DNA of 64,000 nt, from positions 11,103 to 75,102 of the forward strand of contig JBAYIY010000007.1 in the NCBI GenBank assembly GCA_041665365.1, written 5' to 3'. Position 1 is the stretch's first letter. The number at the start of each line of letters is the position of its first letter. The notes below the pieces were generated by a model. It searched no databases. It worked only from the letters and a program-made list of their open reading frames with translations, and was not told where the DNA came from. Shown here piece after piece: positions 7,952 to 47,159 of the stretch. A program made the position numbers and the translations under genes. Origin of the DNA: Patescibacteria group bacterium (lineage in GTDB: Bacteria > Patescibacteriota > Patescibacteriia > UBA9570).

Positions 7952-7952
7952 T

Positions 7953-20033: not shown

Positions 20034-20825
20034 ATGCCTGATTTGATTATACAAAATCTACACGCCAGTGTTGATAATAAACCCGTTTTGCAAGGGGTGA
20101 ATTTGACTGTACGGCAAGGGGAGATTCATGCTTTGATGGGTCCGAATGGGTCAGGCAAAACCACTCTTTCACAAGTGATTATGGGTCATCCAAAATATCA
20201 GGTAACAGCTGGCAGTATTGAGTTTAACGGACAGGATATTTTAAAACTAACTCCGGATAAGCGAGCATTATTGGGAATGTTTTTAGCATTTCAATATCCC
20301 AAAGAAATACCCGGTATAAAATTATTCACATTTTTGCGCACGATTTATAACACTAAAACCAAACAGCGTTTAACGATTAAACAATTCCAACAAGTCTTAG
20401 ATGAAAAATTAAATTTGGTGCGGTTAGAAAAAAGTTTTTTGGAACGTTATCTAAACGCTGGTTTTTCTGGTGGCGAAAAGAAAAAAGTTGAGATGCTGCA
20501 GTTAGCTTTACTGCAACCCGATTTAGCCGTGTTAGATGAAACTGATTCCGGTTTAGATATTGATGCTTTACGGACAGTTTGTTCCAGTTTAAAAACAATC
20601 AAAGCCACCCATAATTTAGGTGTGTTATTAATCACTCATTATAACCGCATCTTAGATTATATTGTACCGGATTATGTGCATGTGATGATCGACGGGAAAA
20701 TTGTTCAATCCGGCGATAAAAATTTTGCCAAAGAAGTTGAGGAAAAAGGTTACGATTGGTTGAGAGACCTCACCCCCAACCCCTCTCCTTCTGAAGGAGA
20801 GGGGAGTAAGGGGAGAGGTCAATAA
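20034..20825 (+). CDS. sufC: Fe-S cluster assembly ATPase SufC, with a repeat-derived C-terminal tail
   Basis: Walker A GPNGSGKTT and signature FSGGEKKK. The canonical end ...GYDWL is followed by 18 aa encoded by palindromic element 20765-20820. Confidence 0.9.
   Translation: MPDLIIQNLHASVDNKPVLQGVNLTVRQGEIHALMGPNGSGKTTLSQVIMGHPKYQVTAGSIEFNGQDILKLTPDKRALLGMFLAFQYPKEIPGIKLFTFLRTIYNTKTKQRLTIKQFQQVLDEKLNLVRLEKSFLERYLNAGFSGGEKKKVEMLQLALLQPDLAVLDETDSGLDIDALRTVCSSLKTIKATHNLGVLLITHYNRILDYIVPDYVHVMIDGKIVQSGDKNFAKEVEEKGYDWLRDLTPNPSPSEGEGSKGRGQ
20765..20820. repeat. family-1 palindromic element (short form) inside the sufC 3' end
   Basis: Arms gacctcaccccc ... ggggagaggtc enclose the hairpin cccctctccttctgaaggagagggg. 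Confidence 0.75.
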
Positions 20826-33197: not shown

Positions 33198-33208
33198 ATT
33201 TACCCCCA

Positions 33209-33303
33209 CGTATAGACATGCAATCATGTAGAGACGTGCCATCATGTAGAGACGTGCCATCATGTAGAGACGTGCCGGCGGCACGTCTCTACATGATGGC
33301 ACG
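33209..33303. repeat. family-2 palindromic repeat cluster (GTAGAGACGTGCC type)
   Basis: About 3.5 tandem 18-bp units catgtagagacgtgccat run into a 21-bp-arm palindrome, gccatcatgtagagacgtgcc-ggc-ggcacgtctctacatgatggc. Confidence 0.85.
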
Positions 33304-33450: not shown

Positions 33451-33966
33451 ATGCCAAAAAATCGAGCGCAAAAAGCGCAATTGCTTGAGGCAATAACGGG
33501 CGCACTCAATCATAAAGGGGTCGTGTTTTTTTCCCATACTGGGTTAAAAGTCACAGATCTAGAAGCTTTGCGCAAAGACATGCGCAAAGAAAACAGTACT
33601 GTGATGGTGGCTAAACGCAACTTATTATTACTCGCTTTAAAACAGCAAGGCATAGCAGTTGACGCAGCACAGTTGGATGGAGCCGTCGCCGTCGCCGTGG
33701 GTGATGACGAAATCACTCCAGCCAAAGTGGTAGCCACATTCAAGAAGAAACACGAAGCAGTAGCTTTCTTCGGAGGGTTAATGGAACATCGTTTCATGAC
33801 CGCCGCTGAAGTGCAACAGCTTTCCACCTTACCAGGTAAGCAAGAGTTATTAGCCAAATTAGTTGGTTCACTCCAGTCGCCCATGACTGGTATGGTCAAC
33901 GTCTTGGTCGGTAATGTCCGCGGCCTGGTTACAGCATTGGATGCGATTCGTGCCCAAAAAGTGTAG
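33451..33966 (+). CDS. rplJ: 50S ribosomal protein L10
   Basis: 171 aa. L10-like sequence immediately upstream of L7/L12. Confidence 0.9.
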   Translation: MPKNRAQKAQLLEAITGALNHKGVVFFSHTGLKVTDLEALRKDMRKENSTVMVAKRNLLLLALKQQGIAVDAAQLDGAVAVAVGDDEITPAKVVATFKKKHEAVAFFGGLMEHRFMTAAEVQQLSTLPGKQELLAKLVGSLQSPMTGMVNVLVGNVRGLVTALDAIRAQKV

Positions 33967-34016
33967 AGACATGCCATGGCATGACTCAACAAATTATTAA
34001 ATAATCATATATCTTT

Positions 34017-34430
34017 ATGTCAGACGAAGTAAAAAAGGATGAAGTAGTAGAAGTGCCGGCCAAATTTAAAGACTTGGTCGAACAAATTGAAAAAATGTCC
34101 GTGTTGGATTTGGCTGACTTAGTCAAAATTCTAGAGAAAAAATTTGGTGTCTCAGCCGCTGCGCCTATGGCTATGATGGCTATGCCCGGAGCTGGTGCCG
34201 CTGCTCCCGTGGAAGAGAAAGATTCTTTCAATGTTGAATTAACTGAAGTTGGTGCCAATAAAATCGCCGTGATTAAAGTCGTGCGTGAGGTGACAGCGTT
34301 AGGGTTAAAAGAAGCTAAAGACCTAGTCGACGGTGCTCCAAAAGTCGTTAAAGAAGACGTCAAGAAAGAGGAGGCCGAAGCCATGAAAAAGAAAATCGAA
34401 GAATCCGGTGCCAAGGTAACGTTGAAATAG
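34017..34430 (+). CDS. rplL: 50S ribosomal protein L7/L12
   Basis: Ala-rich hinge [19 protein letters not shown]-terminal [28 protein letters not shown]. Confidence 0.95.
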
Positions 34431-34450
34431 ACAACAAAGCCTGTCATAAA

Positions 34451-34485
34451 AAATACCCGGTTGATTATATCGGGTATTTTTTTTA
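34451..34485 (+). terminator. rho-independent terminator after rplL
   Basis: aaatacccgg-ttgattatat-cgggtattt followed by a T-run. Confidence 0.7.
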
Positions 34486-34501
34486 CCACTAAATTGTTGT
34501 C

Positions 34502-34591
34502 TTTACCCCCAACCCCCTTGCAGGGGGCTAAGAAAAGATTTTTCTAAATTTTCTTTCTTATCCCCCTGCAAGGGGGACAGAGGGGGTAAAA
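34502..34591. repeat. family-1 nested palindromic element (canonical copy)
   Basis: tttaccccc-aa-cccccttgcaggggg-ctaagaaaag...ctttcttat-ccccctgcaaggggg-acaga-gggggtaaa. Confidence 0.85.
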
Positions 34592-34603
34592 TCCGAGATG
34601 TTC

Positions 34604-36784
34604 TTACAACCCCACCGAATACACCTTATTGTCTGACACTACGTAAATGATTTTATTAGCCGCATCGTAGGCCACATCTTTGGCATTACTAAAGGCCGGT
34701 GATTTATATTGCGCTTGTAATTTGCCATCAGCTGATAATACCACAACCCGCTGAGTGCTTGGATTCAGAATAATAAACGGATCATCAGCATTATTTTTCA
34801 CCAGTTTTACACTGCCAGCTAAACTGGGGCTAAACTCTGGCAGTTTGAAATTACTAGACGTGCCACCATCATATTGTTTAACATTACCATCACTAAACAA
34901 TATATAGATGGACGAATCAATATCAAAGGAGATGGCATCTTGCAAACTTTCTGAATCACTCAACCAATTAGTTGGTGTGGCATAACTATTACCGCTTTTC
35001 GTTAATTTCACAATTCTATTCTGATCAGCTGCCATAACGTATAAACGATCAGCAAAAATATCAATATCAGTAATAGCAACTTGATCGTCTTTTAAGCCCA
35101 CCGTGACAGCACTGGTTTTTTCTAACACTGGGTTAAACTGAACAAAGTCTTTATCATTTACTACCGCTAGGGTAGTAGCCGCGGTATCATTTTCGACGGA
35201 TTTGAAACCAGTGGTATCTGTGCCTGATTCAATCACACTGGTCACTTCTTGTTTATCAATGTTGACACGCCACACTCCAGTTGAGCTGCCGGAAAACACA
35301 AAGACATTTTTTCCAATTAAACTGAGTTTTAAATTTTGCGCGTCACCCACTTTATCCGATAAATCACCCACTAAGGTTGGGGAGTCTAGAACAGTGACTT
35401 TGTTTAAGGCCGTATCAAGATTATTTATTTTTGTGCTGCGGTCACCCAGTTTATCAGCCGAAACTGTGCTGATTAATGCTTCCGCCTGCGCTAAGGCTGC
35501 TCTGGCTCCAACTTCATCTTTAACTAGTTGTTTTGATTCCGCTTCACTGATAAACTGATCAATCTCCTGCAAAGAAGCAGCCTGGGTATCAGTCTGCTGT
35601 GAATTATTGTTCGAGCGGCTCTTGATAAACAAACTTATTAAAATTACCAACAGAGTTAAAACCAGCAAACCGGCAAAGATTTTTTGGGGTAAACTGATAT
35701 TCCAGCGGGATCGTCCGACCGAGCGCGACATTGAATTACTGCGTTTAAACAACATTTGCCCGAGCTGTACGCTGATTTTAAATAACCACACCAAGCCGAG
35801 CATGATTTGATGGGCTACATTGACAATGAATTGCCAAATAATCAACAGCACATTCACAAATGCATTTTGCGATTTGGCATAATTATCTTCAACCGCGCGG
35901 CGCTGTTCGGTTTTTCCAGCCGATTGATTACCCACGTACTGTAGCCGTTTCTTAATGGTTGGCCAAATCGACGGTGTTAAAAGATCACCGGTGGTGCGTT
36001 CTTGATCGATCAACTTTGACATGGAATCATTCGTTTCTTTGTCCCGGTCAGCCTCAGTAGTTGTAATATCTATTTTAGTCAGTGATTCAATTGTTTCATC
36101 AGATATATCATTTTGGACATCTTCAAATTTGATAAGCAAAGCCGCAATATTAGTGAGCGTATCTTGATCCGATAGCACTGTATTTAAATACTCCACGCCA
36201 TCAGCTGAAGTATGATCAAGGACGGTGCGGCGTAATTTCTCTAACGATAAATAATTTAGTAAGTTATTAGTACAAAATAACAAACCACCGCGTTCAGGGC
36301 ATTTACCAGATACTAATGTATTAAATAACTTGAGCGGCTGAATTGTATTGGTCGGGGAATACTGCACTATATCAATGATCTCATCACCCTGAATTAAGTA
36401 GCCATCAATTTTACCGACCGTACTAAAATAGGCAGTGGTGCCGTGTAAGACACCGACTATGCCATGACAATGATATGTCCAACCCTCACCATGTTGGTTG
36501 ATTTGATCTTGAATGGCCGTATTGACCTTTTGCAAAGCCCGTTCAAAAGCCGCTTCAATTTCAAAATCACTGGCTCGATAATAGGCAGAAGTGAACATTT
36601 CGTCGATGGCTTGGACAATCGTTTCAGTATATGTTTCGACACTATCAAATTCTAACAATACAAAAATACGCCCCAGGTTTTTATCCTCCAGTGGCGATGG
36701 TTGAGAGACATAGAGATGAATGGCATTCCTCCCCTCGGCTCGATCTAAGAACAACTCACCGAACACAGGCTTATTCATAGGCAT
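34604..36784 (-). CDS. large membrane-spanning hypothetical protein
   Basis: 726 aa. Cytoplasmic N-domain, TM segments near residues 300-390, and a C-terminal repeat/propeller-like extracytoplasmic region. No family recognised. Confidence 0.55.
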   Translation of the reverse strand: MPMNKPVFGELFLDRAEGRNAIHLYVSQPSPLEDKNLGRIFVLLEFDSVETYTETIVQAIDEMFTSAYYRASDFEIEAAFERALQKVNTAIQDQINQHGEGWTYHCHGIVGVLHGTTAYFSTVGKIDGYLIQGDEIIDIVQYSPTNTIQPLKLFNTLVSGKCPERGGLLFCTNNLLNYLSLEKLRRTVLDHTSADGVEYLNTVLSDQDTLTNIAALLIKFEDVQNDISDETIESLTKIDITTTEADRDKETNDSMSKLIDQERTTGDLLTPSIWPTIKKRLQYVGNQSAGKTEQRRAVEDNYAKSQNAFVNVLLIIWQFIVNVAHQIMLGLVWLFKISVQLGQMLFKRSNSMSRSVGRSRWNISLPQKIFAGLLVLTLLVILISLFIKSRSNNNSQQTDTQAASLQEIDQFISEAESKQLVKDEVGARAALAQAEALISTVSADKLGDRSTKINNLDTALNKVTVLDSPTLVGDLSDKVGDAQNLKLSLIGKNVFVFSGSSTGVWRVNIDKQEVTSVIESGTDTTGFKSVENDTAATTLAVVNDKDFVQFNPVLEKTSAVTVGLKDDQVAITDIDIFADRLYVMAADQNRIVKLTKSGNSYATPTNWLSDSESLQDAISFDIDSSIYILFSDGNVKQYDGGTSSNFKLPEFSPSLAGSVKLVKNNADDPFIILNPSTQRVVVLSADGKLQAQYKSPAFSNAKDVAYDAANKIIYVVSDNKVYSVGL

Positions 36785-36814
36785 AGTATACGAAATTGTG
36801 TTATACTTGTCTAT

Positions 36815-37375
36815 ATGTTGGAATCATTATTCGGCTCCCGGACTCGGGTAAAGTTATTACGTCTATTTTTAAGCCACTCTGAGCAACGCTGGTTTGTCCG
36901 TGAATTAACGCGCGTGGTGCAAGAACAAATCAACTCGGTTAGGCGGGAGCTGGGTCATTTAGAGCAGTTAGGTTTAATTACCTCAGCTCAAGAACAACGT
37001 AAAAAATATTATCGCGTGAACACGAATTTTACACTCTATCCGGAATTAAAAGCCTTATTCATTAAAGCGCGCGTCACTTTAGAAAAAGATGTGATTGAGA
37101 AATTATGTCGCGCGGCCAAAGTACGCTATGTCAGTTTACACGGTTATTTTGTGGATGACACTGATAGTGTGGTTGATTTGTTCGTCATTGGTGATATGAC
37201 CGAACGTCAGTTGCAACAACTGTTGGATGATTTCAAACAACAGTTTGGCCGTGAGTTACGCTATACACACATGACCCTGGCCGAATACAAATATCGGCAT
37301 GATGTGACTGACAAGTTTTTGTTTAACATCCTACATAGTAAGCACATTGTCTTGTTTGACCAACTAACAAAGTAA
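36815..37375 (+). CDS. winged-helix (ArsR/MarR-like) DNA-binding protein with C-terminal nucleotidyltransferase-like region
   Basis: N-terminal FGSRTRVKLLRLFL....... FVRELTR......NSVRRELGHLEQLGLI. TGtTATACT extended -10 lies 7 nt before the ATG. Confidence 0.5.
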   Translation: MLESLFGSRTRVKLLRLFLSHSEQRWFVRELTRVVQEQINSVRRELGHLEQLGLITSAQEQRKKYYRVNTNFTLYPELKALFIKARVTLEKDVIEKLCRAAKVRYVSLHGYFVDDTDSVVDLFVIGDMTERQLQQLLDDFKQQFGRELRYTHMTLAEYKYRHDVTDKFLFNILHSKHIVLFDQLTK

Positions 37376-37392
37376 GGGATATACTTTTTCCT

Positions 37393-37482
37393 ATGATTAA
37401 GTTAATCGCAAAAATCAATAATGTGTTAGCGGTGTTTGTGTTATTGCTGGCCGCTACCATAATTTATCTTTATTTTAGATAA
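37393..37482 (+). CDS. 29-aa single-TM small protein (not in ORF track)
   Basis: MIKLIAKINNVLAVFVLLLAATIIYLYFR. Preceded by TTGACC, 18 nt, TATACT, 7 nt, ATG. Its TAA abuts the ATG at 37483. Confidence 0.45.
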   Translation: MIKLIAKINNVLAVFVLLLAATIIYLYFR

Positions 37483-38250
37483 ATGTTAATCTTCCAACGT
37501 TTTACTCCATATTGGACCACCGGTGTGGTAATGCTATGTCTGGCTCTCTTAGTAAAATACCCACAAGGGTGGTTAGCTTACTTGGTGATAGTGATATTAG
37601 TACCGATTAGTGCGATCATGATCATGCGCCAACCGCGTTGGCGGTTTGAGTATATTGGTTTATCAGTTCCGATGATATTGCTGGTAGTTGGTGGGTATAC
37701 CTTTTTACTAATTCAATCGACCCTGTGGTTACAAGTGGCGGCGGTGTTGTGTACCGGTATCTTTTTTTTCCTATTTGAGAAAAACCTCGCGGTCTGGTTA
37801 TTTCAACCGAACAAATATATTCCATTTTCCATGGAGCATATTAGTATTTATTGCAACGTTGTAGCATCATTTTATACTTATGTCAGTCTGTTCATGTTTT
37901 CAATTTTACGCTTAACTCAGCTGCGCTATATTTTTATTGCCACTTTATTAGTAACAACGGCGCTGGTGGGGCAAACATTTTGGATTCAGAAGATACCCTG
38001 GGTGAAAGCCAAGTGGTTTGTGTTAGTGATAACTGTTGTTATGACGCAATTAGTAGTAGTGCTCTATTATTGGCCAGTGAGTTTTTTTGTGACCGGTATT
38101 ATTATGACATTACTACTCTATGTCTTATTGCACTTAAGCCGGCATCATCTGACAGAAACCTTAACTAAACAATTGGTCTGGCGGTATTTATTGACCTGTG
38201 GTTTAGGATTAATTTTATTATTAGCCACAGCGCAGTGGTTATATGTATGA
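37483..38250 (+). CDS. polytopic membrane protein (about 7-8 TM), unknown function
   Basis: 255 aa, highly hydrophobic. Confidence 0.55.
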   Translation: MLIFQRFTPYWTTGVVMLCLALLVKYPQGWLAYLVIVILVPISAIMIMRQPRWRFEYIGLSVPMILLVVGGYTFLLIQSTLWLQVAAVLCTGIFFFLFEKNLAVWLFQPNKYIPFSMEHISIYCNVVASFYTYVSLFMFSILRLTQLRYIFIATLLVTTALVGQTFWIQKIPWVKAKWFVLVITVVMTQLVVVLYYWPVSFFVTGIIMTLLLYVLLHLSRHHLTETLTKQLVWRYLLTCGLGLILLLATAQWLYV

Positions 38251-38957
38251 AGAGACTACCGGTACCGACAGCGCCAAGTGAAAGAGCTAAATGGCAAACG
38301 GCTGAACCCGGTCGGTCGGCTTGGTTAATTTTAACACTGCTGTTAAGTTTGATAGCGGGTTTTACCGGTAGTTTAATGGCTGATGTTTATGAATTGGATT
38401 TAACACCAACCGCCCCGAATGTGATTGTAGTGCCGGATAATACTTCGTCGGCGTCGGCTAGTTTAGTAGCCGCTCTACAAAATGATCAGGCCGATGCCTT
38501 AGTGCTGATTCGTGATGAAAATACCATTTTAGGTAATGGGATAGTACAGAGTGGTGATGGTTGGATCGTGGCTGTGTCCGAAATATTTACCGATCAAACA
38601 ACCGTGACCATAGAAACTAATGCCGGTAAAAAATATACCAGTGATCAAATGCGCCTTGATGCAACGACCGGTTTAGCCTACATCCATGTAAATACGACCG
38701 GTTTAAGAATTGCCCAGTTTAGAGATAAGCCAGTTGAGTTAGGGGAAAGCTTAATTGTATATGGCCGTAATCCTGTCACCACGGTGGCATATGCATCAGT
38801 GTCTGGTCTTAATGATAAAGATATTATATTAGATCGCACGGTAGAAAAAAGTTTAGTAGGCGCACCGATTTATGATTTGACCAATGCCATGGTTGGTTTT
38901 GCTACGAATTCAACCAAGATAATCCCGATTGAGTTGGTGGCAGAGCCAGGGTTATAA
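38235..38957 (+). CDS. membrane-anchored trypsin-fold-like protein, probably catalytically degenerate
   Basis: N-terminal TM. Layout resembles S1C/HtrA protease cores, but SLVGAP replaces the GNSGGP serine motif. Confidence 0.4.
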   Translation: MVICMKRLPVPTAPSERAKWQTAEPGRSAWLILTLLLSLIAGFTGSLMADVYELDLTPTAPNVIVVPDNTSSASASLVAALQNDQADALVLIRDENTILGNGIVQSGDGWIVAVSEIFTDQTTVTIETNAGKKYTSDQMRLDATTGLAYIHVNTTGLRIAQFRDKPVELGESLIVYGRNPVTTVAYASVSGLNDKDIILDRTVEKSLVGAPIYDLTNAMVGFATNSTKIIPIELVAEPGL

Positions 38958-38960
38958 AAC

Positions 38961-39035
38961 TTTACCCCCAACCCCCTTGCAGGGGGCTAAGAAAAAATGT
39001 TTTTAAAAAACTTCTTTGGGGGACTAAGGGGGTAC
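38961..39035. repeat. family-1 palindromic element (degenerate right half)
   Basis: tttaccccc-aa-cccccttgcaggggg-ctaagaaaaa...cttctt-tgggggactaa-gggggtac. Confidence 0.8.
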
Positions 39036-39050
39036 ATTCCAGTAAGCCTT

Positions 39051-39079
39051 TTGCGAGTTTTATTTTTTTCTGTTATAAT
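39051..39079 (+). promoter_or_regulatory. sigma70-like promoter of the Wzz-like gene, leaderless layout
   Basis: TTGCGA, 17 nt spacer, TATAAT, then 8 nt to the ATG at 39088. Confidence 0.55.
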
Positions 39080-39087
39080 TTTAACCA

Positions 39088-39951
39088 ATGAATTATCTTC
39101 GCATTGTCTTTGCCCATTGGATTGCCATATTGTTCATCACCACTGCGGCCGCGGCGCTTACGGTCGGGTTATCTTTTATTCCTACCCAGATGTATTCATC
39201 GGAGGTGTCTTTATTGATTGTGCAGAAACAAGCGCAGTATGTTGACCCTTACACATCACAGAAAGCTGCCGAAAAGTTGGGGCAAAATTTAGTGAATGTG
39301 ATCGACTCATTTGATTTTTTAAACCGCGTTTTGGCCACCGGCACAGTCTCACCCGATTTATTTAGTGCTTCCACTGATGCCCGTAAAAAACAATGGGAAG
39401 CCATGACTGATGCGGAAATGTTTAGTAACACTGGTGTGTTGCATATCACCGCTTATGCCCCCACCGCCGGTGCCGCTGAAGATGTGGTGATGGCCATGAG
39501 TACAGTGCTCACTACTAATTCATCAGATTATCATGGTGGGGGAGATACCGTTGAGATTAAGCTCATCGATGGGCCGGTCACATCGGATAGTCCGGTAAAA
39601 CCAAACATTCCATTAAATGGTGCGATTGCGGCTGTGTTAGGCCTAATCGCCTCGGCGGCTGTATTTATTGTTTATGAAGAAACCAAACGGTTACAAGATG
39701 AACAAGCCAAGGTGAGGTATGTGCAAACCGTCACGCCTGGTAGAGACGTGCCGCCGGCACGTCTCTACGATGATCGGATTGAAAAATCTGATCAAATCAT
39801 AGAGCCCCAATATAAGGTATTAGATGAATACCCCAAACAGCCATATGTGTATGGTGCGGAATTGAAGGATGAAGAACCTCGCCAAGGGGCGGGTGAACCT
39901 CGCCAAGGGGCGGGTGAACCGGTGTCGATGCAGGATCATTTGAAAAAATAG
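39088..39951 (+). CDS. Wzz-like polysaccharide chain-length determinant with repeat-derived C-terminal tail
   Basis: TM1 at the N-terminus followed by Y.SEV.LLI, and TM2 (GAIAAVLGLIASAAVFIV) near residue 190. The tail contains a family-2 palindrome and a 21-bp tandem. Confidence 0.55.
   Translation: MNYLRIVFAHWIAILFITTAAAALTVGLSFIPTQMYSSEVSLLIVQKQAQYVDPYTSQKAAEKLGQNLVNVIDSFDFLNRVLATGTVSPDLFSASTDARKKQWEAMTDAEMFSNTGVLHITAYAPTAGAAEDVVMAMSTVLTTNSSDYHGGGDTVEIKLIDGPVTSDSPVKPNIPLNGAIAAVLGLIASAAVFIVYEETKRLQDEQAKVRYVQTVTPGRDVPPARLYDDRIEKSDQIIEPQYKVLDEYPKQPYVYGAELKDEEPRQGAGEPRQGAGEPVSMQDHLKK
39740..39768. repeat. family-2 palindrome inside the coding sequence
   Basis: gtagagacgtgcc-gcc-ggcacgtctctac, translated as GRDVPPARLY. 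Confidence 0.85.
39874..39920. repeat. 21-bp tandem repeat (2.2 copies)
   Basis: gaacctcgccaaggggcgggt x2 plus gaacc, translated as EPRQGAG EPRQGAG EP. Confidence 0.9.
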
Positions 39952-39978
39952 GGGTTTTCCCCAGTAATTTAGGTAAAA

Positions 39979-40008
39979 AAACGAGTTCAAATAAATGGAC
40001 TCGTTTTA
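39979..40008 (+). terminator. hairpin terminator after the Wzz-like gene
   Basis: Stem acgagt/actcgt with a 12-nt loop, followed by TTTTAGTATT. Confidence 0.45.
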
Positions 40009-40011
40009 GTA

Positions 40012-40040
40012 TTGACAAAAAGTAGAAATAATGCTAAATT
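40012..40040 (+). promoter_or_regulatory. sigma70-like promoter opening the high-GC cassette array
   Basis: TTGACA (40012), 17 nt spacer, TAAATT (40035). Confidence 0.5.
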
Positions 40041-40064
40041 GTTCAGTTATTTTTGGGGACATAT

Positions 40065-40213
40065 GTACCCCCTAGCCCCCTTGCAGGGGGTAAAAGATAA
40101 CAATAAACTTATGCACCTTTTCACTATGAACAGTTAGTACGAACGGGGATACCATGAGTGTACCCCCAACCCTCATCTCTTATCCCCTTGAAAGGGGGAC
40201 AGAGGGGGTAAAT
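40065..40213. repeat. family-1 palindromic element, split/expanded copy
   Basis: gtaccccc-tag-cccccttgcaggggg ... about 70 nt insert ... gtaccccc-aac...ccccttgaaaggggg-acaga-gggggtaaa. Confidence 0.75.
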
Positions 40214-40760
40214 TCCGGAGTGGGTAAACACCAGTTAGTCTCACACGAATCAGATGAGAACACCATCAAAGTGAAGGTGTTGCCATGTGGTTCGTCTGTA
40301 TAGCCGGTGATCAGCAATGATCGCTGGCTGTCATGAATCACTCAACCCGAAAGGGTTAAGCACATTTACAATCTACTTTCCTACTTCGACTCGTTTCACT
40401 CGCTCAGTATAAATTTATTGAGCATGTAAGCTTGTCGAATGATCATCGGTAGCGATATACAGACCTCATCAATATACATACTTCTTTGAGTACACCACCC
40501 TAGCCCTCCTATTCTAGGAGGGAATAAGAATAAATTTTCTTACTCCCTTCCTACAATAGGAAGGGCCGGGGATGGTGTATTCCGGAGAGGGATACGTATC
40601 CGGAGAGGTCTCCATATCGCTACCGATGAAACCAACAATATCGGAGCTCGGTTCCCCAACGGGGAGACATTCGTCGCGGCAATTTCGCCGTGATGTATGT
40701 CCACCCGGACGTGAACCGGGACCGATCGACTTCACTCGACTACATGGAGCTACGAAAACA
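40204..40760 (+). promoter_or_regulatory. conserved structured 5' leader, copy A
   Basis: A 91-nt block (40204-40294) is identical to 42545-42635. Block 40443-40625 is near-identical to 42712-42917. Long-range stem cggtagcgatatacagacctc / gaggtctccatatcgctaccg. Confidence 0.6.
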
Positions 40761-42236
40761 ATGACGTTCAAGAACATCCTCGCGATCTTCACGTTCATCT
40801 TCGCCATTCTCGCCCCGGCGACCGTCGCCCAGGCCCAGGAGAAGTGGGAGGATCCAAAAGTGGGTCCGTTCACTCTCGGGTACTGGTCGAAGCTCGATGC
40901 CGGCGCGACCAGTGTCGACGCCGCGGCGGCCGGGATCATGAAGAACTTCAAGGAGTGTGAGAGCAAGTACGGCCAGGGTGGGTGCTACATCCAGTTCGAA
41001 TCATCTACTGACATCAACCGCTGGGACAACACCAAGAATGGCAAGGACGACGCATTGCACGGTGGGCTCGGAGAGGGACGCACCGCGGTCCTCAAGGACG
41101 CGGTGTTTTCTCGATCCGCAAGGATCAAGGAATACTCGGTCACCGACTACCCCCACCACGGTGCGAAAGATGGATGGCGGTACTCCTGGGCGACGATCAT
41201 GCCCAAGGAAGGTGCCTCCGCGATGCCGAAGGTGTCGGCCGACCCCAACAAGAGGTGGAGCTTCCTCACGGAAGTGCTCCTCCGCCAGACCGATAACCTC
41301 TGTCCCACGATGGTGCGGGCGGACGCGGTCACGCGAACCTACACCCTGCAGGGTCAAACCTGCGGGTGCAGCACGTTCGATGCAGTGCCCAGCACCCGCC
41401 AGTTGGAGGTCAGGAACGACCTCACCTGGTTGGGAAAGGTCGTCGCGGACCGCTCGAAGTGGTCCGACGCGAAGACTTTGACCTGGACGGAAGTCCGGGC
41501 CGCTCTCGAGGAGGGCACCGAGTCCCGCGTCATCGAAGTCGACGCGCTCGGCGATCCGTCCTCCACGCCCGACGGTCTGTCCGTTGAGTTCGTGGAGTCG
41601 GAGACCCTGCTCCGGGTGCAGTTCCCGGACAGGTGCTCGCCGATCCTCGACGCCGCGAAGGCAGAGGCCGACGCCAAGGCGCAAGCCAAGGCTCAGGCCG
41701 ACGCCGACGCCCGCGAGTCCGCAAGGCTCGCGGCGTACAACACCGACTTCATGGTCGGTGGGTCGGTCGCGGGTACGGGGACGTTCATCCCCAAGTACAG
41801 CCCCTTCAACCCGGGCAGGGGTTTCGACCTCGCCGGGCACGTCGAGGGCGGTGCGGTGATCGGCGGCGGGTACGGCGCGTGGGCTTTCGGGCTCGGCGTC
41901 GGCCCGTCGTGGGACCCGAACTGCCTGACCCCCGGCCAGGTTGACCTCGAGGCCTTCACCGGCCCGTGGCTCAACAGGCAGGGGAAGGTCGGGTTCTCCG
42001 CCTTCCTGAACGGATCTGCGGGCTTCACCATGTACAACGGTGAAGTCCTCACCCCGCGGTACCGCCTGGGTCTCAACCTGGGCGTGCCCGTGCAGGTGGA
42101 GCGTGAGCTCTACCTGGTTCCCCAGATCGGCCCCGTGGTCGACTGGGTGAGCGGGCAGGTGCAGGCGACCGGCGGCTTCGCGATCACCGAGCGAGTCGGG
42201 ATCGCGGGTGGTCTGCGGATCATCAAGACGTTCTGA
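40761..42236 (+). CDS. high-GC exported protein with C-terminal beta-barrel-like domain (foreign-type)
   Basis: ORF track gives 40572..42236. The true start is likely the ATG at 40761, after GGAG, because it begins the signal peptide MTFKNILAIFTFIFAILAPATVAQA. Strong GC3 bias. Gly/aromatic-rich last ~170 aa, ending in Phe. Confidence 0.7.
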   Translation: MTFKNILAIFTFIFAILAPATVAQAQEKWEDPKVGPFTLGYWSKLDAGATSVDAAAAGIMKNFKECESKYGQGGCYIQFESSTDINRWDNTKNGKDDALHGGLGEGRTAVLKDAVFSRSARIKEYSVTDYPHHGAKDGWRYSWATIMPKEGASAMPKVSADPNKRWSFLTEVLLRQTDNLCPTMVRADAVTRTYTLQGQTCGCSTFDAVPSTRQLEVRNDLTWLGKVVADRSKWSDAKTLTWTEVRAALEEGTESRVIEVDALGDPSSTPDGLSVEFVESETLLRVQFPDRCSPILDAAKAEADAKAQAKAQADADARESARLAAYNTDFMVGGSVAGTGTFIPKYSPFNPGRGFDLAGHVEGGAVIGGGYGAWAFGLGVGPSWDPNCLTPGQVDLEAFTGPWLNRQGKVGFSAFLNGSAGFTMYNGEVLTPRYRLGLNLGVPVQVERELYLVPQIGPVVDWVSGQVQATGGFAITERVGIAGGLRIIKTF

Positions 42237-42429
42237 TCTGAGTAGGAAAGTAGGTTAGGGTGAGGGGGTATAGGTTGTGTCGCAAGTCTGCGAACAATCT
42301 GTACCTCCTCCCCACCTACACAAATATGAATAAGGGATAATGTCTCTCGAGGTAGTGACCTCGGTAAACATGGTTCCTGATTCAACTGAATAAGGAATCG
42401 GTCTTTAAAAATAATCTATGGTTAAAACC

Positions 42430-42553
42430 TTTACCCCCTCTGTCCCCCTCTCGCCTCTGCGAAGCCGCTACGGCGGAGCACGGTGCAGGGGGATAAGAAA
42501 AGAAGTTTTAAAAATATCTTCTCATAGCCCCCTGCAAGGGGGTTGGGGGTAAA
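42430..42553. repeat. family-1 palindromic element (inverted orientation) with a GC-rich insert in one hairpin loop
   Basis: tttaccccc-tctgt-ccccct[38-nt insert]caggggg-ataagaaaag...-ccccctgcaaggggg-tt-gggggtaaa. Confidence 0.8.
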
Positions 42554-43053
42554 TTCCGGAGTGGGTAAACACCAGTTAGTCTCACACGAATCAGATGAGA
42601 ACACCATCAAAGTGAAGGTGTTGCCATGTGGTTCGAAGAGTCATAGTCGATCAGCAATGATCGCTTGTGACCACGAAACACAATTTGTTCTTTAAAATCT
42701 TCTGCTAAGAATCATCGGTAGCGATATACAGACCTCATCAAGCATACACACTTCTTTGAGTACACCACCCTAGCCCCCCGCCTTGCCGGCGTGGCAGGTC
42801 CTATTCTAGGAGGGAATAAGAATAAATTTTCTTACTCCCTTCCTACAATAGGAAGGGCCGGGGATGGTGTATTCCGGAGAGGGATACGTATCCGGAGAGG
42901 TCTCCATATCGCTACCGGTGAAAACAATACCGGCGTGCTCGGTTCCCAGAATGGGAAAGATGCGGTTGTGGGAATGTTCCCATGACATGTGTTCTACCCT
43001 GTTCAAAAGAACCGGGACCGATCGACTACACAATTTCGACTGGAGCTACGACA
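42545..43053 (+). promoter_or_regulatory. conserved structured 5' leader, copy B
   Basis: See copy A. Same block order, with the middle segment shortened and a 22-nt GC-rich insert at about 42786. Confidence 0.6.
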
Positions 43054-43839
43054 ATGACGCTCAAAAACATCGTGATCTCGCTCGCGCTCGTCGTCGGTTG
43101 CAAGATGGGCCCGGTGCAGGAATGTGACTCGGACTCGGACTGCTTCGAAACCAACACCAACTCCGATACCGACACCGACGCGGACACGGACACGGACGCC
43201 GACGCTGATACGGACACGGACTCCGACACCGATACCACCGAAACCGACGTGGACAACGACGGCGACGGGTACACCGTGGACGGCGGGGACTGCAACGACG
43301 CCAACGCCAGCGTCCACCCGGGCGCGACCGAGTACTGCAACGGCGTCGACGACGACTGCAACGGGTCGATCGACGACAATGACACCGACGGGGACGGGTA
43401 CGTCTCCGACGACTGCACGTCATATGACGGAGTCGCCGGCCTCCCCGGTGGTGATTGCGCGGATTCGATCGGGACGACGGCGTCCTGGTCGAACAGCGAT
43501 ATCCACCCGGGGCAGTTGGAAATGTACGACTGGATCGACACTAACTGCGACGGCACCGCCGACGATGGATGTAGTATGTTGTGCGACACCGACGGCGACG
43601 GATACGAGAATTTCGAACAGGGCAGCGGGCCCGAGTTCGAGTGCGTGGACGCGTCGTTCGTGGCGGATCAGTCCGCCTCGAGCAGCCCGTTCGATACGAC
43701 GATCTCGTGGACGTATGCCTCCAGCGGAGTGGTTTACTCCGGTGTGAACGCAACGTGCGAAATGACGGCGGCCCAGCAGGTCGATCCGTCAACCTGGAGG
43801 ACGATCACGTCCATCCAGGCCGAGATGGCCACCCGCTAA
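43054..43839 (+). CDS. high-GC lipoprotein with (D-T)n tract and MopE-type Cys-rich motifs (foreign-type)
   Basis: Start at the ATG at 43054 after GGAG. Lipobox LALVVGC. DTDTDADTDTDADADTDTDSDTDT tract. DGDGYTVDGGDCNDANASVHPGATEYCNGVDDDCNGSIDD. Confidence 0.7.
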   Translation: MTLKNIVISLALVVGCKMGPVQECDSDSDCFETNTNSDTDTDADTDTDADADTDTDSDTDTTETDVDNDGDGYTVDGGDCNDANASVHPGATEYCNGVDDDCNGSIDDNDTDGDGYVSDDCTSYDGVAGLPGGDCADSIGTTASWSNSDIHPGQLEMYDWIDTNCDGTADDGCSMLCDTDGDGYENFEQGSGPEFECVDASFVADQSASSSPFDTTISWTYASSGVVYSGVNATCEMTAAQQVDPSTWRTITSIQAEMATR

Positions 43840-44107
43840 AGGTGGTTATCTCAACCGGAGATTGGTAGTTCTCCGGGCACAGACATAAGTGCAAACAAAA
43901 AACCAAAATCTTCTAGCAGAAGATAGATCAGCTCGGGAGGTGGCATGAGTAGAGCACACAAACGCTCCTCGCCACCTCCCACCTTCGCTCTAAGAAGAGC
44001 TTCGGCGGGCAAGCCCACCTAATAATGTATCCAGAATCAAATAGTATTATGGATAGATTAATGGGAAATAGTAATTAACAAATAGGAGTTAGGAAATAAA
44101 TAGGGGG

Positions 44108-44134
44108 TTGACGTGACCTTTTTTTTGATATAAT
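44108..44134 (+). promoter_or_regulatory. promoter with extended -10, leaderless layout
   Basis: TTGACG, 15 nt spacer containing TGa, TATAAT (44129), then 8 nt to the ATG at 44143. Confidence 0.45.
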
Positions 44135-44142
44135 ATCGATTT

Positions 44143-44391
44143 ATGACTACGGCTAAATTAGTAAAAACAGTAAATTCATGTCCAAAGACAAGTTTGAATG
44201 ACAAACCGGTTGTTATGATACCCATGGAACTATGGGAAACGCTTCAGGTACAATTACTAACAAGACCAGTCCCGACTTATTATTTGCAAGGAAAAGAGGC
44301 AAAACAATTAGATCATCTTGTTCAACAAGGTATAAACGCAGCTCGATCGAGAAAAACTAGAGTAATAACTTCACTTGCAGAGTTAGATTAG
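44143..44391 (+). CDS. putative type II antitoxin (Phd/YefM- or RelB-like)
   Basis: 82 aa. KPVVMIPMELWETLQ resembles the antitoxin N-domain. A toxin-like remnant follows 4 nt downstream. Confidence 0.4.
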   Translation: MTTAKLVKTVNSCPKTSLNDKPVVMIPMELWETLQVQLLTRPVPTYYLQGKEAKQLDHLVQQGINAARSRKTRVITSLAELD

Positions 44392-44394
44392 CCC

Positions 44395-44460
44395 ATGAAC
44401 ATACAGGTCACAGATCGTTTCGTTAAGCAATATAAAAAATTTATCGATGAGGTTAGATGA
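44395..44460 (+). pseudogene. truncated RelE/ParE-like toxin remnant (21 codons)
   Basis: MNIQVTDRFVKQYKKFIDEVR-stop resembles the N-terminus of RelE/ParE toxins (..I.ft.rF.K.lKKl). Confidence 0.35.
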
Positions 44461-44506
44461 TGATTATGGAAAAATAAAAATACGAAGTCACACTGAAAAA
44501 GATATT

Positions 44507-44532
44507 AAAATGTGCTACCAGCACATTTTTTT
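44507..44532. terminator. hairpin terminator, possibly bidirectional
   Basis: aaaatgtgc-tacca-gcacatttt followed by a T-run. Lies between the TA remnant and the 3' end of the ligase gene. Confidence 0.6.
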
Positions 44533-44562
44533 GTATTCAGCGTTATCAGTTCTTTCAGCGCC

Positions 44563-45966
44563 TCAGCGATCCATTTGGCCGTGTGGCCTTGTCTCCACAA
44601 CAATCATGGCTAGCACTGTCATATATGTCCACATCACGGCGGTACCTTGGAGTAGATTATCACTGACACTAATTGTTAGCGCGGCAATAATTAAGGCCAT
44701 ACCAAACAGAGCATAGTGTTTTTGCCAGCTGTCTTCATGGTGGCTAACATAATTCCAGAATAGTGTTACTAACAAACCTAGCCAGAAACCAAGATACAGA
44801 GCCAAACCAACGAAGCCGGTTTCAATGGCTAAACGGAGATAATCATTATGGGCTTCAGGGTCATCAAACAAACCGATATCGCCCTGTTGTCTTAAAGTCA
44901 CAAAGTTGCCTAAACCGTAACCGAGAAGGGGAGAATTGAGGGTTTGCGGTGCCATAGTTTGAAACACCTGTAAGCGCCAATCAATCGAATCGGCTTCCTC
45001 ATCACGACTGGTTAGGCGATGTAAGAGGTTTATTTTATTTAGATCATAATTAAAAGTATTGATGGTAACAGTGTTGATTACTTGCCACAACAAAAATGCA
45101 CCGACTAAGACAGTAGCAATAGTGAGTAATTGTTTACGATAATATTTTAGGCCAATTAATATTTGAATGACGACAAAACCAATCCAGGCACCTCGAGTAT
45201 AGGTGAATAATAACATCACCAACCCCAAGCCGATTAGCCATGGATATATTAAAGACCGTTGTTCAGGTTTTTTAGTCAGTTGGGTGATTAATAATAAATT
45301 TATGATACATACCAAATAAAACCCAAACACATTCGGGTGACCAAAGGTGCCATAGACGCGGTTATCTAAACCACCAAATGATAGCCCGGTGGCGGTAATA
45401 AGCTGCACCAAGCCAGCGGCTAATGGTATCACCAGAGCCACGGCTAGTACCGGTGTTAGCCGCGTGATACTGTGTGGTTGTGTGGTAGCCACGTGGTAGG
45501 CAATTATAAAAATAATCACAATCGAACTGAGGCGGAGCCATTCACTCAATGAGATAAATGTATCCAAGCTGACACCCAAGGTGGCGGCTCCCCAGATTAA
45601 AACTCCAATCAGCCAGCCCAATTGGGTAGTGGCACTAAGTTCAACCCGTTCTCTAAGTAGAATTACTAAGAACCACACAATCACCAATATTGCCACCATG
45701 GAAGTTAAATTTATAGTGACTGATCGAATGGTTAAAAGGCCATAGCCAGAAAATATATCAATGATCGGGCGAAAGATGAGTAGGGCATATAAACCATACT
45801 CGGTTTTTAATAAAAAAATTGGGGCGATAATTACAATGGCCGCTAAGCCAATGGCGGATGTAGCAGAAATATCTCCAAATACTATCCAGCCTAATACACT
45901 TAACACTGTTAGGCTGTATATAATTAAAAGTATGGTGTTGAATTTTGAAAGTGGGGAGAAAGACAT
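44563..45966 (-). CDS. O-antigen ligase-like (Wzy_C/RfaL family) membrane protein
   Basis: 467 aa, about 11 TM. YTRGAWIGF and EAHNDYLRLAIETGFVG motifs. Confidence 0.75.
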   Translation of the reverse strand: MSFSPLSKFNTILLIIYSLTVLSVLGWIVFGDISATSAIGLAAIVIIAPIFLLKTEYGLYALLIFRPIIDIFSGYGLLTIRSVTINLTSMVAILVIVWFLVILLRERVELSATTQLGWLIGVLIWGAATLGVSLDTFISLSEWLRLSSIVIIFIIAYHVATTQPHSITRLTPVLAVALVIPLAAGLVQLITATGLSFGGLDNRVYGTFGHPNVFGFYLVCIINLLLITQLTKKPEQRSLIYPWLIGLGLVMLLFTYTRGAWIGFVVIQILIGLKYYRKQLLTIATVLVGAFLLWQVINTVTINTFNYDLNKINLLHRLTSRDEEADSIDWRLQVFQTMAPQTLNSPLLGYGLGNFVTLRQQGDIGLFDDPEAHNDYLRLAIETGFVGLALYLGFWLGLLVTLFWNYVSHHEDSWQKHYALFGMALIIAALTISVSDNLLQGTAVMWTYMTVLAMIVVETRPHGQMDR

Positions 45967-46103: not shown

Positions 46104-47159
46104 TTACTTGACGGCGACCGTAGGGTTCGCCACCACGAGGATACTCCCCATGATGGTCTCCACGTCGCCGGCGTAATTCCCGCCGGCATTGTGGAGGTCG
46201 ATCCCCTCGGCCTTCACCACCTCTTCCCGGACGCCGTCAGCGACCGGGAAAGCCACCTCGCCCTCGCCGTACGAATCGTCGACGACGAAGAAGAAATGAT
46301 CCCGGGCGACTTCACAAAGTCGTTTGCCCGGGAGAGTGGTCAGACTCGAACACTTGAACCCCTCCGGCAGCACGAGGATGCTGCCCATCGTGAGTTCCGG
46401 AATCGTTCCGGTGTACTCACTCAGGGCGTAGCTATCCCCGGAGCCGGCGAGGGGCCCGGTGAAGCAATCGTAGCCCGACGAGGCGCCATCGCCGCAAGAG
46501 AGGTGGGTATGATCCACCTCAATGGGCAACGGCCGCCCGATCGGGCCAGTCTGAGTCAATTCTCCCACACGCACCGCCTGGGTCGCGGTCGTGTGGGAGC
46601 CACCGTGAGCCCCAACCCAGCGGGTGGAGTCATATCCCTTCTCACACGCGCTGAACGGCGCGGAGTCGGGGAGGACCCACCCGGACGAGCCGTCGAAGTA
46701 GCTGATTTCAACAACGGTACCGTCAGGCTGCAGGGCCGTGACGATCCCATTGTTGTACAGATCATCCGACGTGTCCCTCATGGCGAAGGAATCGGGGAGG
46801 TAAACCTCCCTCGTTCTCCTGCCATCGGGGGCTGTCACGGTCACCGGTGACGAGTCTTTCGACCCGTCGAGGACAAAAACCGGGTCGATGTCGACCCAGT
46901 CAAGTCCTCCGTCCCAGTCCGTCTCGACCGTCCGGGCGATCTTGCGATCAACCTGGAGGTCACGGATCTGGAACGGCACCGAGGCCCAGCACTCGGCCGG
47001 GGTCTCGGTGTCGGTGTCCGCGTCAGTGTCAGAGTCGGTGTCCGTCTCCGCTTCGGGGCAGGTCGCCCCGGGCAGAGACGGATCACAATTGAGCTCTCCA
47101 CACCCCGCCACCAAAATGGTGACCAGGACGAGGAGCAGCTCGATGATGTAGCGCAACAT
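46104..47159 (-). CDS. high-GC lipoprotein with (D-T/S)n tract (foreign-type)
   Basis: 351 aa. Lipobox LVAGC. ETDTDSDTDADTDTE tract. Strong GC3 bias. AAGGAG lies 6 nt before the ATG. Confidence 0.7.
   Translation of the reverse strand: MLRYIIELLLVLVTILVAGCGELNCDPSLPGATCPEAETDTDSDTDADTDTETPAECWASVPFQIRDLQVDRKIARTVETDWDGGLDWVDIDPVFVLDGSKDSSPVTVTAPDGRRTREVYLPDSFAMRDTSDDLYNNGIVTALQPDGTVVEISYFDGSSGWVLPDSAPFSACEKGYDSTRWVGAHGGSHTTATQAVRVGELTQTGPIGRPLPIEVDHTHLSCGDGASSGYDCFTGPLAGSGDSYALSEYTGTIPELTMGSILVLPEGFKCSSLTTLPGKRLCEVARDHFFFVVDDSYGEGEVAFPVADGVREEVVKAEGIDLHNAGGNYAGDVETIMGSILVVANPTVAVK

Follow-up and report, generated by a model that had tools for sequence, protein, structure and literature searches.

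The BoxC or PIT class of bacterial repeats, reportedly treated in 2000 by Hoyne and co-workers, consists of G/C-rich class II intrastrand triplex motifs. The motifs were described in Escherichia coli as BoxC, later as PIT and then as TMECO (Holder et al., 2015, PMC4666352). According to the class II rule, a pyrimidine domain is followed by a loop, the complementary purine domain, a further loop and a reverse-Hoogsteen domain that mirrors the purine domain; the triads are G*G-C, A*A-T and T*A-T, stems have at least 6 nt with no more than one mismatch in longer stems, and loops are short (PMC4666352). Motifs of this kind are abundant in Enterobacteria and Cyanobacteria, where they are intergenic, occur in 'palindromic' pairs and are associated with small deletions; TMECO is present in 262 proteobacterial genomes, its loci in E. 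coli are prone to small deletions and indels, and G/C-rich motifs are found in cyanobacteria (PMC4666352). In the strict definition of TMECO/BoxC, the isolated strand should form a stable triplex in vitro, detectable by circular dichroism and nuclear magnetic resonance. PIT elements show neither terminator nor promoter activity in E. coli (PMC4666352). Origin and function of the class have been open since the 1990s, and there is no accepted mode of spread. A further system for comparison are the REPINs, in which two inverted short imperfect palindromes (repetitive extragenic palindromes, REPs) and a spacer form one hairpin (Bertels and Rainey, 2011, PMC3116915). Here, we analysed a 64-kb stretch (the window) of contig JBAYIY010000007.1 from a Patescibacteria group bacterium (assembly GCA_041665365.1), in which an earlier note had listed eight nested G/C palindromes as one family. 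It is likely that the eight sites represent short dispersed repeats of the BoxC/PIT/TMECO class, with damage in several copies, and that these are REPIN-like, taking this as the whole account.

The nested G/C palindromes are genuine dispersed repeats. All eight sites are present at the positions listed in the earlier note, and each contains perfect C-run/G-run hairpins. The window has 16 perfect hairpins with CCC as their first letters and a stem of 5 nt or longer, compared to 4.56 ± 2.0 in block shuffles, and 13 of these 16 fall within the eight sites. For TACCCC...GGGGTA pairs not more than 170 nt apart, we observed six cases in the window with 0.25 ± 0.48 expected. Single-strand folding with ViennaRNA, a model that does not include triplexes, resulted in z-scores of -5.0 to -8.2 against shuffled sequences for every copy except the truncated one at 38961 (z = -0.7). 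The non-coding share of the window is only 9.3 %, and all copies (9 repeat pieces per 64 kb) lie within it, occupying 13.6 % of this share; for six independent copies, such confinement would arise by chance with a probability of about 6e-7. An independent assembly from the Joint Genome Institute (JGI; contig L035) matches window positions 33940-40010 with 99.98 % identity and reproduces the copies at 34502 and 38961, which excludes an assembly artefact for these two.

What assigns the repeats to a known class is the build of their halves. The earlier note had described one shared plan for all sites, of which the doublet layout was confirmed; instead of a single family, the sequences split into three types, termed F1, F2 and F3. 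Each half consists of a pyrimidine arm, a purine arm and a mirror repeat of the purine arm, in which A is sometimes replaced by T. An ITxF-like scan (6-12 nt in the stem, a single mismatch tolerated from 8 nt on, loops found of 1-7 nt) detected 13 class II motifs in the 64 kb, compared to 0.07 ± 0.25 in 30 block shuffles, and all 13 are located inside the eight sites. Their first loops have 1-5 nt and their second loops 1-7 nt. For non-homopolymer stems of at least 7 nt, the mirror rule yielded 7 matches with stems of up to 12 nt, in contrast to 3 weak matches for a direct-repeat control, and F2 passes only the mirror rule. In addition, the outer arm tracks the stem: TAGGAGGG occurs with GGGAGGTG or GGGTGGTG, TAGGAAGGG with its one extra A occurs with GGGATGGTG and its one extra T, and AGGAGAGGGG occurs with GGGGAGAGGT. 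This covariation of the third arm with the stem across three stem sequences is hard to explain by hairpin pairing alone. The left motif of a doublet is read from the minus strand and the right one from the plus strand, which puts the two mirror arms at the outside and makes them complementary. The outer inverted pair, which the earlier note had recognised without the mirror rule, represents the third-strand segments of two inverted motifs. The 13 motifs thus agree with the definition of class II intrastrand triplex motifs of the G/C-rich type, and this mirror rule places the repeats in the BoxC/PIT/TM class. They also share the other traits of class II repeats, being multi-copy and non-coding, having no transposon link and including truncated and interrupted copies. 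Taken together, the repeats extend a known, still unexplained class and are not a new kind of element; novel are the sequence types F1 and F2, the dominance of the inverted doublet and the host phylum.

The three types differ in their anatomy. F1 has C5/G5 stems with a TTGCA loop and two distinguishable ends, the A end being TTTACCCCC-AA-CCCCCTTGCAGGGGG-CTAAGAA and the B end TTTACCCCC-TCTGT (or TTAGT)-CCCCCTTGCAGGGGG-ATAAGAA. Every F1 copy combines one A end with one B end, and the motif halves are near-invariant around a variable core. F2 has the arms ACACCWCC/GGWGGTGT and the hairpins CCCTCCTATYSTAGGAGGG and CCCTTCCTACAATAGGAAGGG, whereas F3 is a single unit at the sufC/sufB junction with only one hairpin and an arm on either side. 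As these mirror-repeat arms flank the hairpin on both sides, the F3 triplex motif can be read on both strands. The aagaa/ttctt core proposed earlier was found as TAAGAA behind the first hairpin and its complement in front of the second in F1 and F2; F3 has AGTAAG at this place. The individual features are as follows, with z-scores from the folding analysis.

34502-34591: F1 doublet; A end, AT-rich core, then TTCTTAT-CCCCCTGCAAGGGGG-ACAGA-GGGGGTAAA; the sole intact F1 copy (z = -8.2).
34505-34527 (minus strand) and 34561-34588 (plus strand): triplex-motif halves of this copy from the motif scan.
38961-39035: F1, A-to-B; 5' arm and loop of the second hairpin deleted (z = -0.7).
40066-40092: solo F1 end, TACCCCC-TAG-CCCCCTTGCAGGGGGTA, just downstream of the leader-1 promoter (40012-40040).
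40158-40213: internally deleted F1, A-to-B; TACCCCC-AA-CCC / TCATCTCTTAT-CCCCTTGAAAGGGGG-ACAGA-GGGGGTAAA.
42430-42553: F1, B-to-A; 34-nt GC-rich insertion (42450-42483) in the loop of the first hairpin (z = -5.3).
7818-7951: F2 doublet; ACACCTCC-CCAA-CCCTCCTATCGTAGGAGGG, core, CCCTTCCTACAATAGGAAGGG, 19-nt insertion (7903-7921), GGGATGGTGT and a second closing arm GGAGGTGT (z = -6.5).
40490-40580: F2 doublet of leader 1; GTACACCACC-CTAG-CCCTCCTATTCTAGGAGGG-AATAAGAATAAATTTTCTTACT-CCCTTCCTACAATAGGAAGGG-CCGGG-GATGGTGTAT (z = -7.6).
40494-40522 (minus strand) and 40545-40576 (plus strand): triplex-motif halves of this copy from the motif scan.
42760-42872: F2 doublet of leader 2, paralogue of 40490-40580; 22-nt GC-rich insertion (42777-42798) in the first hairpin.
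20765-20820: F3 single unit; ACCTCACCCCC-AA-CCCCTCTCCTTCTGAAGGAGAGGGG-AGTAA-GGGGAGAGGT (z = -5.0).

This anatomy changes several boundaries and groupings of the earlier list, the coordinates of which were otherwise reliable. The stretch 40065-40213 had been treated as one element and turned out to be a solo end and a deleted F1 separated by about 65 nt of unrelated sequence; the F2 copies in the leaders end at 40580 and 42872 instead of 40600 and 42900, the second of them starting at 42760 and not at 42765; and the two-hairpin plan does not apply to 20765-20820. The occurrence in both orientations was confirmed, with 42430-42553 running from B to A and the other F1 doublets from A to B. Multiple copies are truncated or interrupted by deletions and small insertions. 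The GC-rich insertions of 19, 22 and 34 nt interrupt one triplex-motif half each in three copies and are able to form small hairpins; those of 22 and 34 nt are each unique within the window. In size and position, they recall the 'small dispersed repeats' of 21-27 nt in Nostoc, which insert into other repeats. A search of the whole window against Rfam at gathering thresholds returned the tRNA-Trp as the sole match, and in E-value mode the leaders gave nothing except sub-threshold microRNA-like hairpin noise on F2.

With respect to neighbouring genes, the placement mostly at 3' ends holds true, as four independent copies begin 0-12 nt past a stop codon. The intact F1 copy (34502) has the stop of a gene for a 726-aa protein (34604, minus strand) on one side and the bidirectional rplL terminator on the other; this terminator, located upstream of the copy at 34450-34485, is a canonical hairpin of its own and has T runs. 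The 38961 copy starts 4 nt behind the stop of a trypsin-like gene and is located upstream of a wzz-like promoter (39051-39079). F2 at 7818-7951 fills the entire spacer between the convergent genes DUF218 and bipA, and its outer stem covers both stop codons (7814-7955). The final 20 aa of the sufC open reading frame (ORF) are the translation of F3, as the SufC profile ends at aa 243 of 263 (nt 20762), and the G-rich arm GGGGAGAGGT of F3 is found 8-17 nt upstream of the sufB ATG. This purine arm may act as ribosome-binding site of sufB.

To compare these loci with those of relatives, we used syntenic regions with orthologues of 45-59 % protein identity (124.6 kb in total for the motif density); related proteins came from Kerfeldbacteria. 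A protein with 100 % identity to one from the window is assigned in NCBI to a metagenome-assembled 'Patescibacteria group bacterium', and this host rules out a cyanobacterial origin, which the style of the repeats had suggested. None of F1, F2 and F3 was detected by sequence in five relatives, and the motif density was 13 per 64 kb here versus 3 per 124.6 kb there. The spacer between rplL and the gene for the 726-aa protein has 173 nt in our genome, compared to 44-75 nt with one bidirectional terminator in the relatives L039, L040 and L041. In L039, this rplL terminator is itself a TMECO-type motif, and the rplL spacer of L033 harbours two convergent CCCTCTCC hairpins, one of them a full triplex motif. 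The spacers equivalent to the 38961 site have only 43 nt (L034) and 65 nt (L033), containing the promoter part and no repeat. Most SufC homologues terminate with GYDWL(R/K) plus 0-5 residues, and P0030, P0033, P0035 and P0047 carry PSPxEGEG-like tails that correspond to the translated CCCTCTCC/GGAGAGGG motif. On the DNA level, the sufC/sufB junction is empty in L052, where the sufC stop overlaps the sufB start, and contains a single triplex motif in L051.

Outside of the syntenic loci, the exact F1-end pattern matched only once among 185,579 GTDB species representatives, namely a chance terminator in a gammaproteobacterial metagenome-assembled genome, and in 30 stretches of JGI metagenomes, of which only L026 (contig Ga0172379_10001718) contains a true full F1. 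This copy is 82 % identical over 101 nt with almost unchanged motif halves and lies upstream of an mfd-like gene in a non-syntenic contig. The other JGI stretches are single C5/G5 triplex-type motifs on unrelated, mostly high-GC contigs, together with an array on Ga0078972_1003759. Viral contigs gave 6 single-end F1 matches and none for the F2 hairpin, and the downstream 8.7 kb of our contig contain no repeat copy. The earlier idea of a dispersed repeat similar to REPs or to miniature transposable elements with inverted repeats (MITEs) is therefore supported by the confinement to non-coding DNA, both orientations, presence or absence relative to relatives and the full copy in the unrelated contig L026. 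The array on Ga0078972_1003759 (L024 1466-1726, L007 1220-1456) is a separate observation: it is a 78-nt tandem array in an unrelated contig of 42 % GC, and its unit holds TACCCCCAACCCCCTTGCAGGGGGCTTAA, which equals the F1 A end over 26 nt, and a second hairpin CCCCTGTCAGGGG.

One of the closest described systems is BoxC/PIT/TMECO. Both share the unit rule, G/C-rich stems of 6-12 nt, short loops, the intergenic position, inverted pairs, small deletions that spare a hairpin and the absence of a linked transposase, and F3 and the motif in L039 are near-identical to it in sequence type (CCCTCTCCC...GGGAGAGGG...GGGTGAGGG). Differences are the new types F1 (C5/G5) and F2 (stems CCCTCCTA and CCCTTCCTA), the doublet with the conserved TAAGAA...TTCTTA core, which is the rule here and the exception there, and a Patescibacterium as host. 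The E. coli K-12 lldD-trmL spacer shows a doublet plan identical to that of the window, with CCCCTCACCC-TAA-CCCTCTCCC TCA GGGAGAGGG on the left, followed by 58 nt, and CCCTCGCCCC TCC GGGGAGAGGG-CCG-GGGTGAGGGG on the right; this locus is one of the published 'palindromic TM occurrences' (PMC4666352). In cyanobacteria, the Pseudanabaena galeata plasmid pPg_03 contains 16 motifs in 49.7 kb, 14 of which form 7 inverted doublets of 72-104 nt, one of them with C5-type stems like F1 and several inside annotated coding sequences. The pPg_03 doublet was found at 79 places in 27 plasmid records, not one of them annotated as a repeat. These plasmid doublets have the same plan, size and purine-then-pyrimidine core (AGCAAGAGAAG...TTTTCCTGCT), are multi-copy as well and include both CCCCTCTCCC-type and C5-type stems, but they belong to another phylum, F3 matches them with only 84-90 % identity over 40-49 nt, and F1 has no plasmid match.

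The doublets also agree with the definition of a REPIN, two inverted palindromes and a spacer that together form one hairpin. Further common features are the size of about 70-110 nt, the extragenic position, ends that are more conserved than the spacer, and singlets and decayed copies beside the doublets. In contrast to REPINs, however, no gene for a REP-associated tyrosine transposase (RAYT) was seen in the about 73 kb of the contig examined, there is no GTAG tag, and the halves carry an extra mirror arm which REPs lack. Rickettsia palindromic elements (RPE), Correia/NEMIS, RUP, ERIC and Nezha are likewise short palindromic non-coding repeats beside genes; these RPEs and other MITEs differ in being defined by the terminal inverted repeats (TIRs) of a parent insertion sequence (IS) or, for RPE, by CGTC tags, and none consists of mirror-repeat motifs. 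RPEs can be translated in frame, and F3 likewise adds 20 aa to SufC. Our literature search found no report on MITEs or REPINs in Patescibacteria (candidate phyla radiation), and the MITEs of Thiomargarita have no bearing on F1, F2 or F3.

The repeats are dispersed in non-coding DNA, have the build of triplex motifs, carry internal indels and have been gained or lost between related genomes. In the model that we propose for them, each unit is a pyrimidine arm, a short loop, a purine arm, a short loop and a mirror purine arm in which A may be T. Two such units, as a rule inverted around an AT-rich core (TAAGAA...TTCTTA), yield the succession of outer pair, hairpin, core, hairpin and closing arm. 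Because of the defined A/B ends, the conserved halves, the variable core and the decayed singlets, we infer that the doublet is the replicating unit. Being REPIN-like and non-autonomous, it may be copied or lost as a whole via hairpins or triplexes formed on a single strand; the driving force may be replication, repair or an enzyme that acts in trans and has its gene outside this contig. The repeats would then be unstable and in essence selfish DNA. Their effects on nearby genes would be incidental, namely strong hairpins in 3' untranslated regions and in the leaders of two surface-protein genes, the tail of SufC and the possible ribosome-binding site of sufB. Mobility as such appears about evenly balanced to us. 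A more specific version is doubtful: here, F1 and F2 doublets would be actively mobile through single-stranded hairpin or triplex intermediates and insert beside a GGAAT word, with the help of a replication or repair enzyme of the host or an unrecognised one that reads the mirror arms.

Several points weigh against this model. In the contig genes (about 73 kb of the 85-kb contig examined), no transposase or recombinase domain was identified, no clear target-site duplication is visible at the copies, and the copy count rests on these 73 kb of the genome, the window itself accounting for 64 kb. Insertion polymorphism between near-identical strains was not seen, the only other assembly of the strain being identical, and an empty site from the same species was not found either. 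At the rplL and sufC/sufB junctions, relatives carry different motifs at the same place, which could reflect long retention or a local function instead of repeated insertion. With regard to the class assignment, the strict TMECO consensus CCCTCNCCC-N3-6-GGGNGAGGG-N3-GGGNGAGGG does not occur in the window, even if the second loop is allowed 2-5 nt, whereas it matches the relative L039, Pseudanabaena plasmids and E. coli K-12. The mirror relation of F1 is trivial and the mirror test uninformative for this type, its stems being C5/G5 homopolymers. Finally, 'triplex motif' denotes a sequence class here and is no proof of structure, and the published study of TMECO found neither evidence of a stable triplex in vivo nor a function (PMC4666352).

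A first alternative regards the doublets as genuine REPINs or derivatives of the PATE-like kind. A HUH tyrosine transposase of the RAYT/IS200/IS605 type would move them in single-stranded form, recognise subterminal hairpins and insert beside a short target word. The architecture is indeed that of a REPIN, with a pair of inverted imperfect palindromes and a spacer (about 70-110 nt; PMC3116915), and the lack of an obvious target-site duplication would fit as well. Moreover, one flank is conserved whatever the A/B orientation: GGGGGTA-(A/C)A(T/A)TCC(G/A) was found at 34502 (GGGGGTAAAATCCGAG), 38961 (GGGGGTACATTCCAG), 40213/42553 in both leaders (GGGGGTAAATTCCGGAG) and in L026 (GGGGGTAAATTCCGAAG), and GTATTCCGGAG follows F2. 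This one-sided flank resembles an IS200/IS605 target word and may be one of the HUH type; it may also be part of the element, and the leader copies are paralogous. As a dispersed word, ATTCCGGAG is not significant window-wide (15 matches versus 10.2 expected) and is relevant only as element flank. A weak lead is GGGGACAG in the B end, which fits the GGGGWSAS word of the TIRs flanking TIRYT genes. No such enzyme was seen, however: the RAYT or IS200/IS605 TnpA that the earlier note suggested to look for was not found, and no Y1_Tnp-type gene is present in the examined part of the contig or in about 125 kb of relatives. GTAG is characteristic of RAYT-linked REPs (PMC3733652), but no element end carries a terminal GTAG or CGTC, and GTAG/CTAC occurs only internally, in F2 loops and stems and as one CTAC in the 34-nt insertion of the 42430 copy. 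We therefore consider this explanation improbable, slightly more so than the specific version given above. A classical TIR-type MITE, derived from a DDE transposon of the IS630/Tc1-like kind with TA duplication and mobilised in trans, has in its favour the terminal inverted repeats, the length of 75-135 nt, the intergenic position and the TA-CCCCC...GGGGG-TA ends of all F1 copies. Since TTTA/TAAA is conserved beyond the TA in most copies, the TA looks element-internal; F2 and F3 lack TA ends, which leaves F1 as the only candidate, no parent IS or DDE transposase was detected in the contig, and single units without a partner (F3, L039, L051 and E. coli singles) indicate that two TIRs are not needed. 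Such an origin is very unlikely.

A function on the RNA level, with hairpins that terminate transcription or protect mRNA 3' ends and that structure the 5' leaders of surface-protein genes, would be in agreement with the copies beginning directly behind stop codons, with F2 at 7818 as the sole sequence between two convergent genes, with very stable predicted RNA folds and with leader copies downstream of a promoter-like site. The rplL terminators of L033, L034 and L039 are C-run hairpins of this type with T runs. In the window, however, no copy has a T tail, the sequences behind the hairpins being CTAAGAA, AGTTAAG and AGTAAGG, and none is among the 9 terminator-like sites in 33900-44600. The modular terminator suggested in the earlier note is not supported by these findings either, and rplL has its own canonical terminator, F3 is located within the sufCB operon, where termination would be harmful, and truncated and interrupted copies persist. 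Furthermore, an RNA hairpin would make no use of a mirror arm. Triplexes of the purine-motif kind do not form in RNA, and the PIT elements tested in E. coli were inactive as terminators and promoters (PMC4666352). We regard a primary RNA function as clearly improbable, more so than the HUH explanation and less so than a classical MITE. Least credible of all, with next to no weight, are attC-like recombination sites that delimit or exchange high-GC gene cassettes. Conserved architecture with variable sequence is a hallmark of attC, and four sites are found in the leaders of two high-GC ORFs. The contig genes encode no integrase or recombinase, though, and there are no core sites of the GTTRRRY type: the element ends are TTTACCCCC/GGGGGTAAA and ACACCWCC/GGWGGTGT, not RYYYAAC/GTTRRRY. 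Housekeeping genes (bipA, sufC, rplL) are the neighbours of half of the sites. No repeats are present at the third high-GC ORF or at the syntenic ORFs of high GC in L033, and a single segmental duplication accounts for the leader copies.

This duplication comprises the leaders at 39990-40830 and 42380-43080, which represent one segment of about 700 nt (repeat families D2, D4 and D19) and contain four of the eight sites. The F1 and F2 copies in the leaders are therefore paralogous and not four independent events. The earlier note had counted two copies embedded in the leaders of high-GC cassettes; the embedding was confirmed, the number of sites there being four. A promoter-like site at 40012-40040 positions the leader-1 copies within the 5' leader. 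Both leaders share a 100 % identical block of 91 nt (40204-40294 and 42545-42635), a 26-nt inverted repeat that encloses F2 and conserved sequence immediately ahead of the probable start codons (GAACCGGGACCGATCGACT...ACAATGACG). In leader 1, the F2 doublet at 40490-40580 thus sits inside this larger inverted repeat (40442-40467 and 40605-40629). The F1 copies 40158-40213, which adjoins the 91-nt block, and 42430-42553 have the same position relative to this block and the same boundary, but the opposite orientation, which indicates either a flip of the palindrome or a re-insertion at the same site. The gene start called at 40572 falls within F2 and is probably incorrect.

Three ORFs with 60-70 % GC are present in this genome of 41 % GC, at 40791-42236 (plus strand), about 43054-43839 (plus strand) and 46104-47159 (minus strand), within a wzz/wzy/glycosyltransferase cluster. 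The syntenic ORFs of the relative L033 (1438-4731) are equally GC-rich; the feature is thus conserved, and an assembly chimera is excluded. The first ORF encodes a signal peptide and had no detectable homologues in our homologue search, the second a lipobox and MopE-like metal-binding repeats. The repeats do not mark the borders of such cassettes, as had been proposed: only two of the three ORFs have them, in their duplicated leaders and about 200 nt ahead of the probable start codons, and they are absent around the third and around the syntenic ORFs in L033.

Additional observations were made at these high-GC genes. The 12-mer GTAGGAAAGTAG forms an inverted pair at 40373-40384 (minus strand) and 42242-42253 (plus strand), 2 matches compared to 0.18 expected, which brackets the first high-GC ORF and most of its leader. 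Extended to GGTAGGAAAGTAGATTGTAAAG, it is also found behind the stop of a syntenic high-GC ORF in L033 (1368-1379), which is only about 57 % identical on the protein level; the word may serve the high-GC genes as a site of recombination or regulation. Directly 3' of the stop of the first ORF (42255-42320), a stretch absent from the earlier list contains a G-rich arm GGGTGAGGGGGTA and, 35 nt on, a C-rich arm TACCTCCTCCCCACC around a small hairpin. These arms resemble TMECO third strands, but with reversed polarity and without C/G hairpins. At 43935-43985, in L033 at 4830-4740 (minus strand) and in L034 at 100-40 (minus strand), the start codon and a strong Shine-Dalgarno sequence GGGAGGTGG form hairpins by pairing with a downstream CCACCTCC that codes for Pro-Pro-Pro. 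These hairpins open high-GC ORFs in L033 and L034 (MFYIVL.PPP); in the window, the hairpin is on a 25-aa ORF after cassette 2. L033 also encodes a four-helix protein of the bAvd/23S-rRNA-IVP family (4963-5343) between a wzz-like gene and the high-GC ORFs; no reverse transcriptase was found within 10 kb of this gene in L033, and a diversity-generating retroelement is not evident.

The window also contains other repeats. A direct repeat of 82 nt with 94 % identity (3148-3229 and 4603-4684) flanks an ORF at 3444-4517, and its second copy ends 23 nt before the tRNA-Trp (4707-4778); the pair may be the footprint of an integrated element or a local duplication. An 18-nt tandem repeat (CATGTAGAGACGTGCC...) occupies 33207-33276 in the spacer before rplJ, and a 21-nt periodic repeat runs at 17271-17544 through the ORF 17076-17651.

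Repeats of this build have practical consequences for genome analysis. They break assemblies, as seen for the JGI contig L035, which ends at 40010 immediately 5' of the leader repeats, they mislead gene callers (the start at 40572 inside F2 and the 20-aa tail of SufC), and they can be mistaken for terminators or structured RNAs. The presence of the triplex-motif rule in a Patescibacterium indicates that the class is far more widespread than reported. It also shows that expansion is possible even in a small genome densely packed with genes, where the copies take up about 14 % of the non-coding part of this stretch. The doublet with its defined A/B ends and one-sided flank offers a testable handle on REPIN-like movement. 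If active mobility were true, BoxC/PIT/TM elements in general would be REPIN-like mobile DNA, with the triplex-forming arm as the recognition feature.

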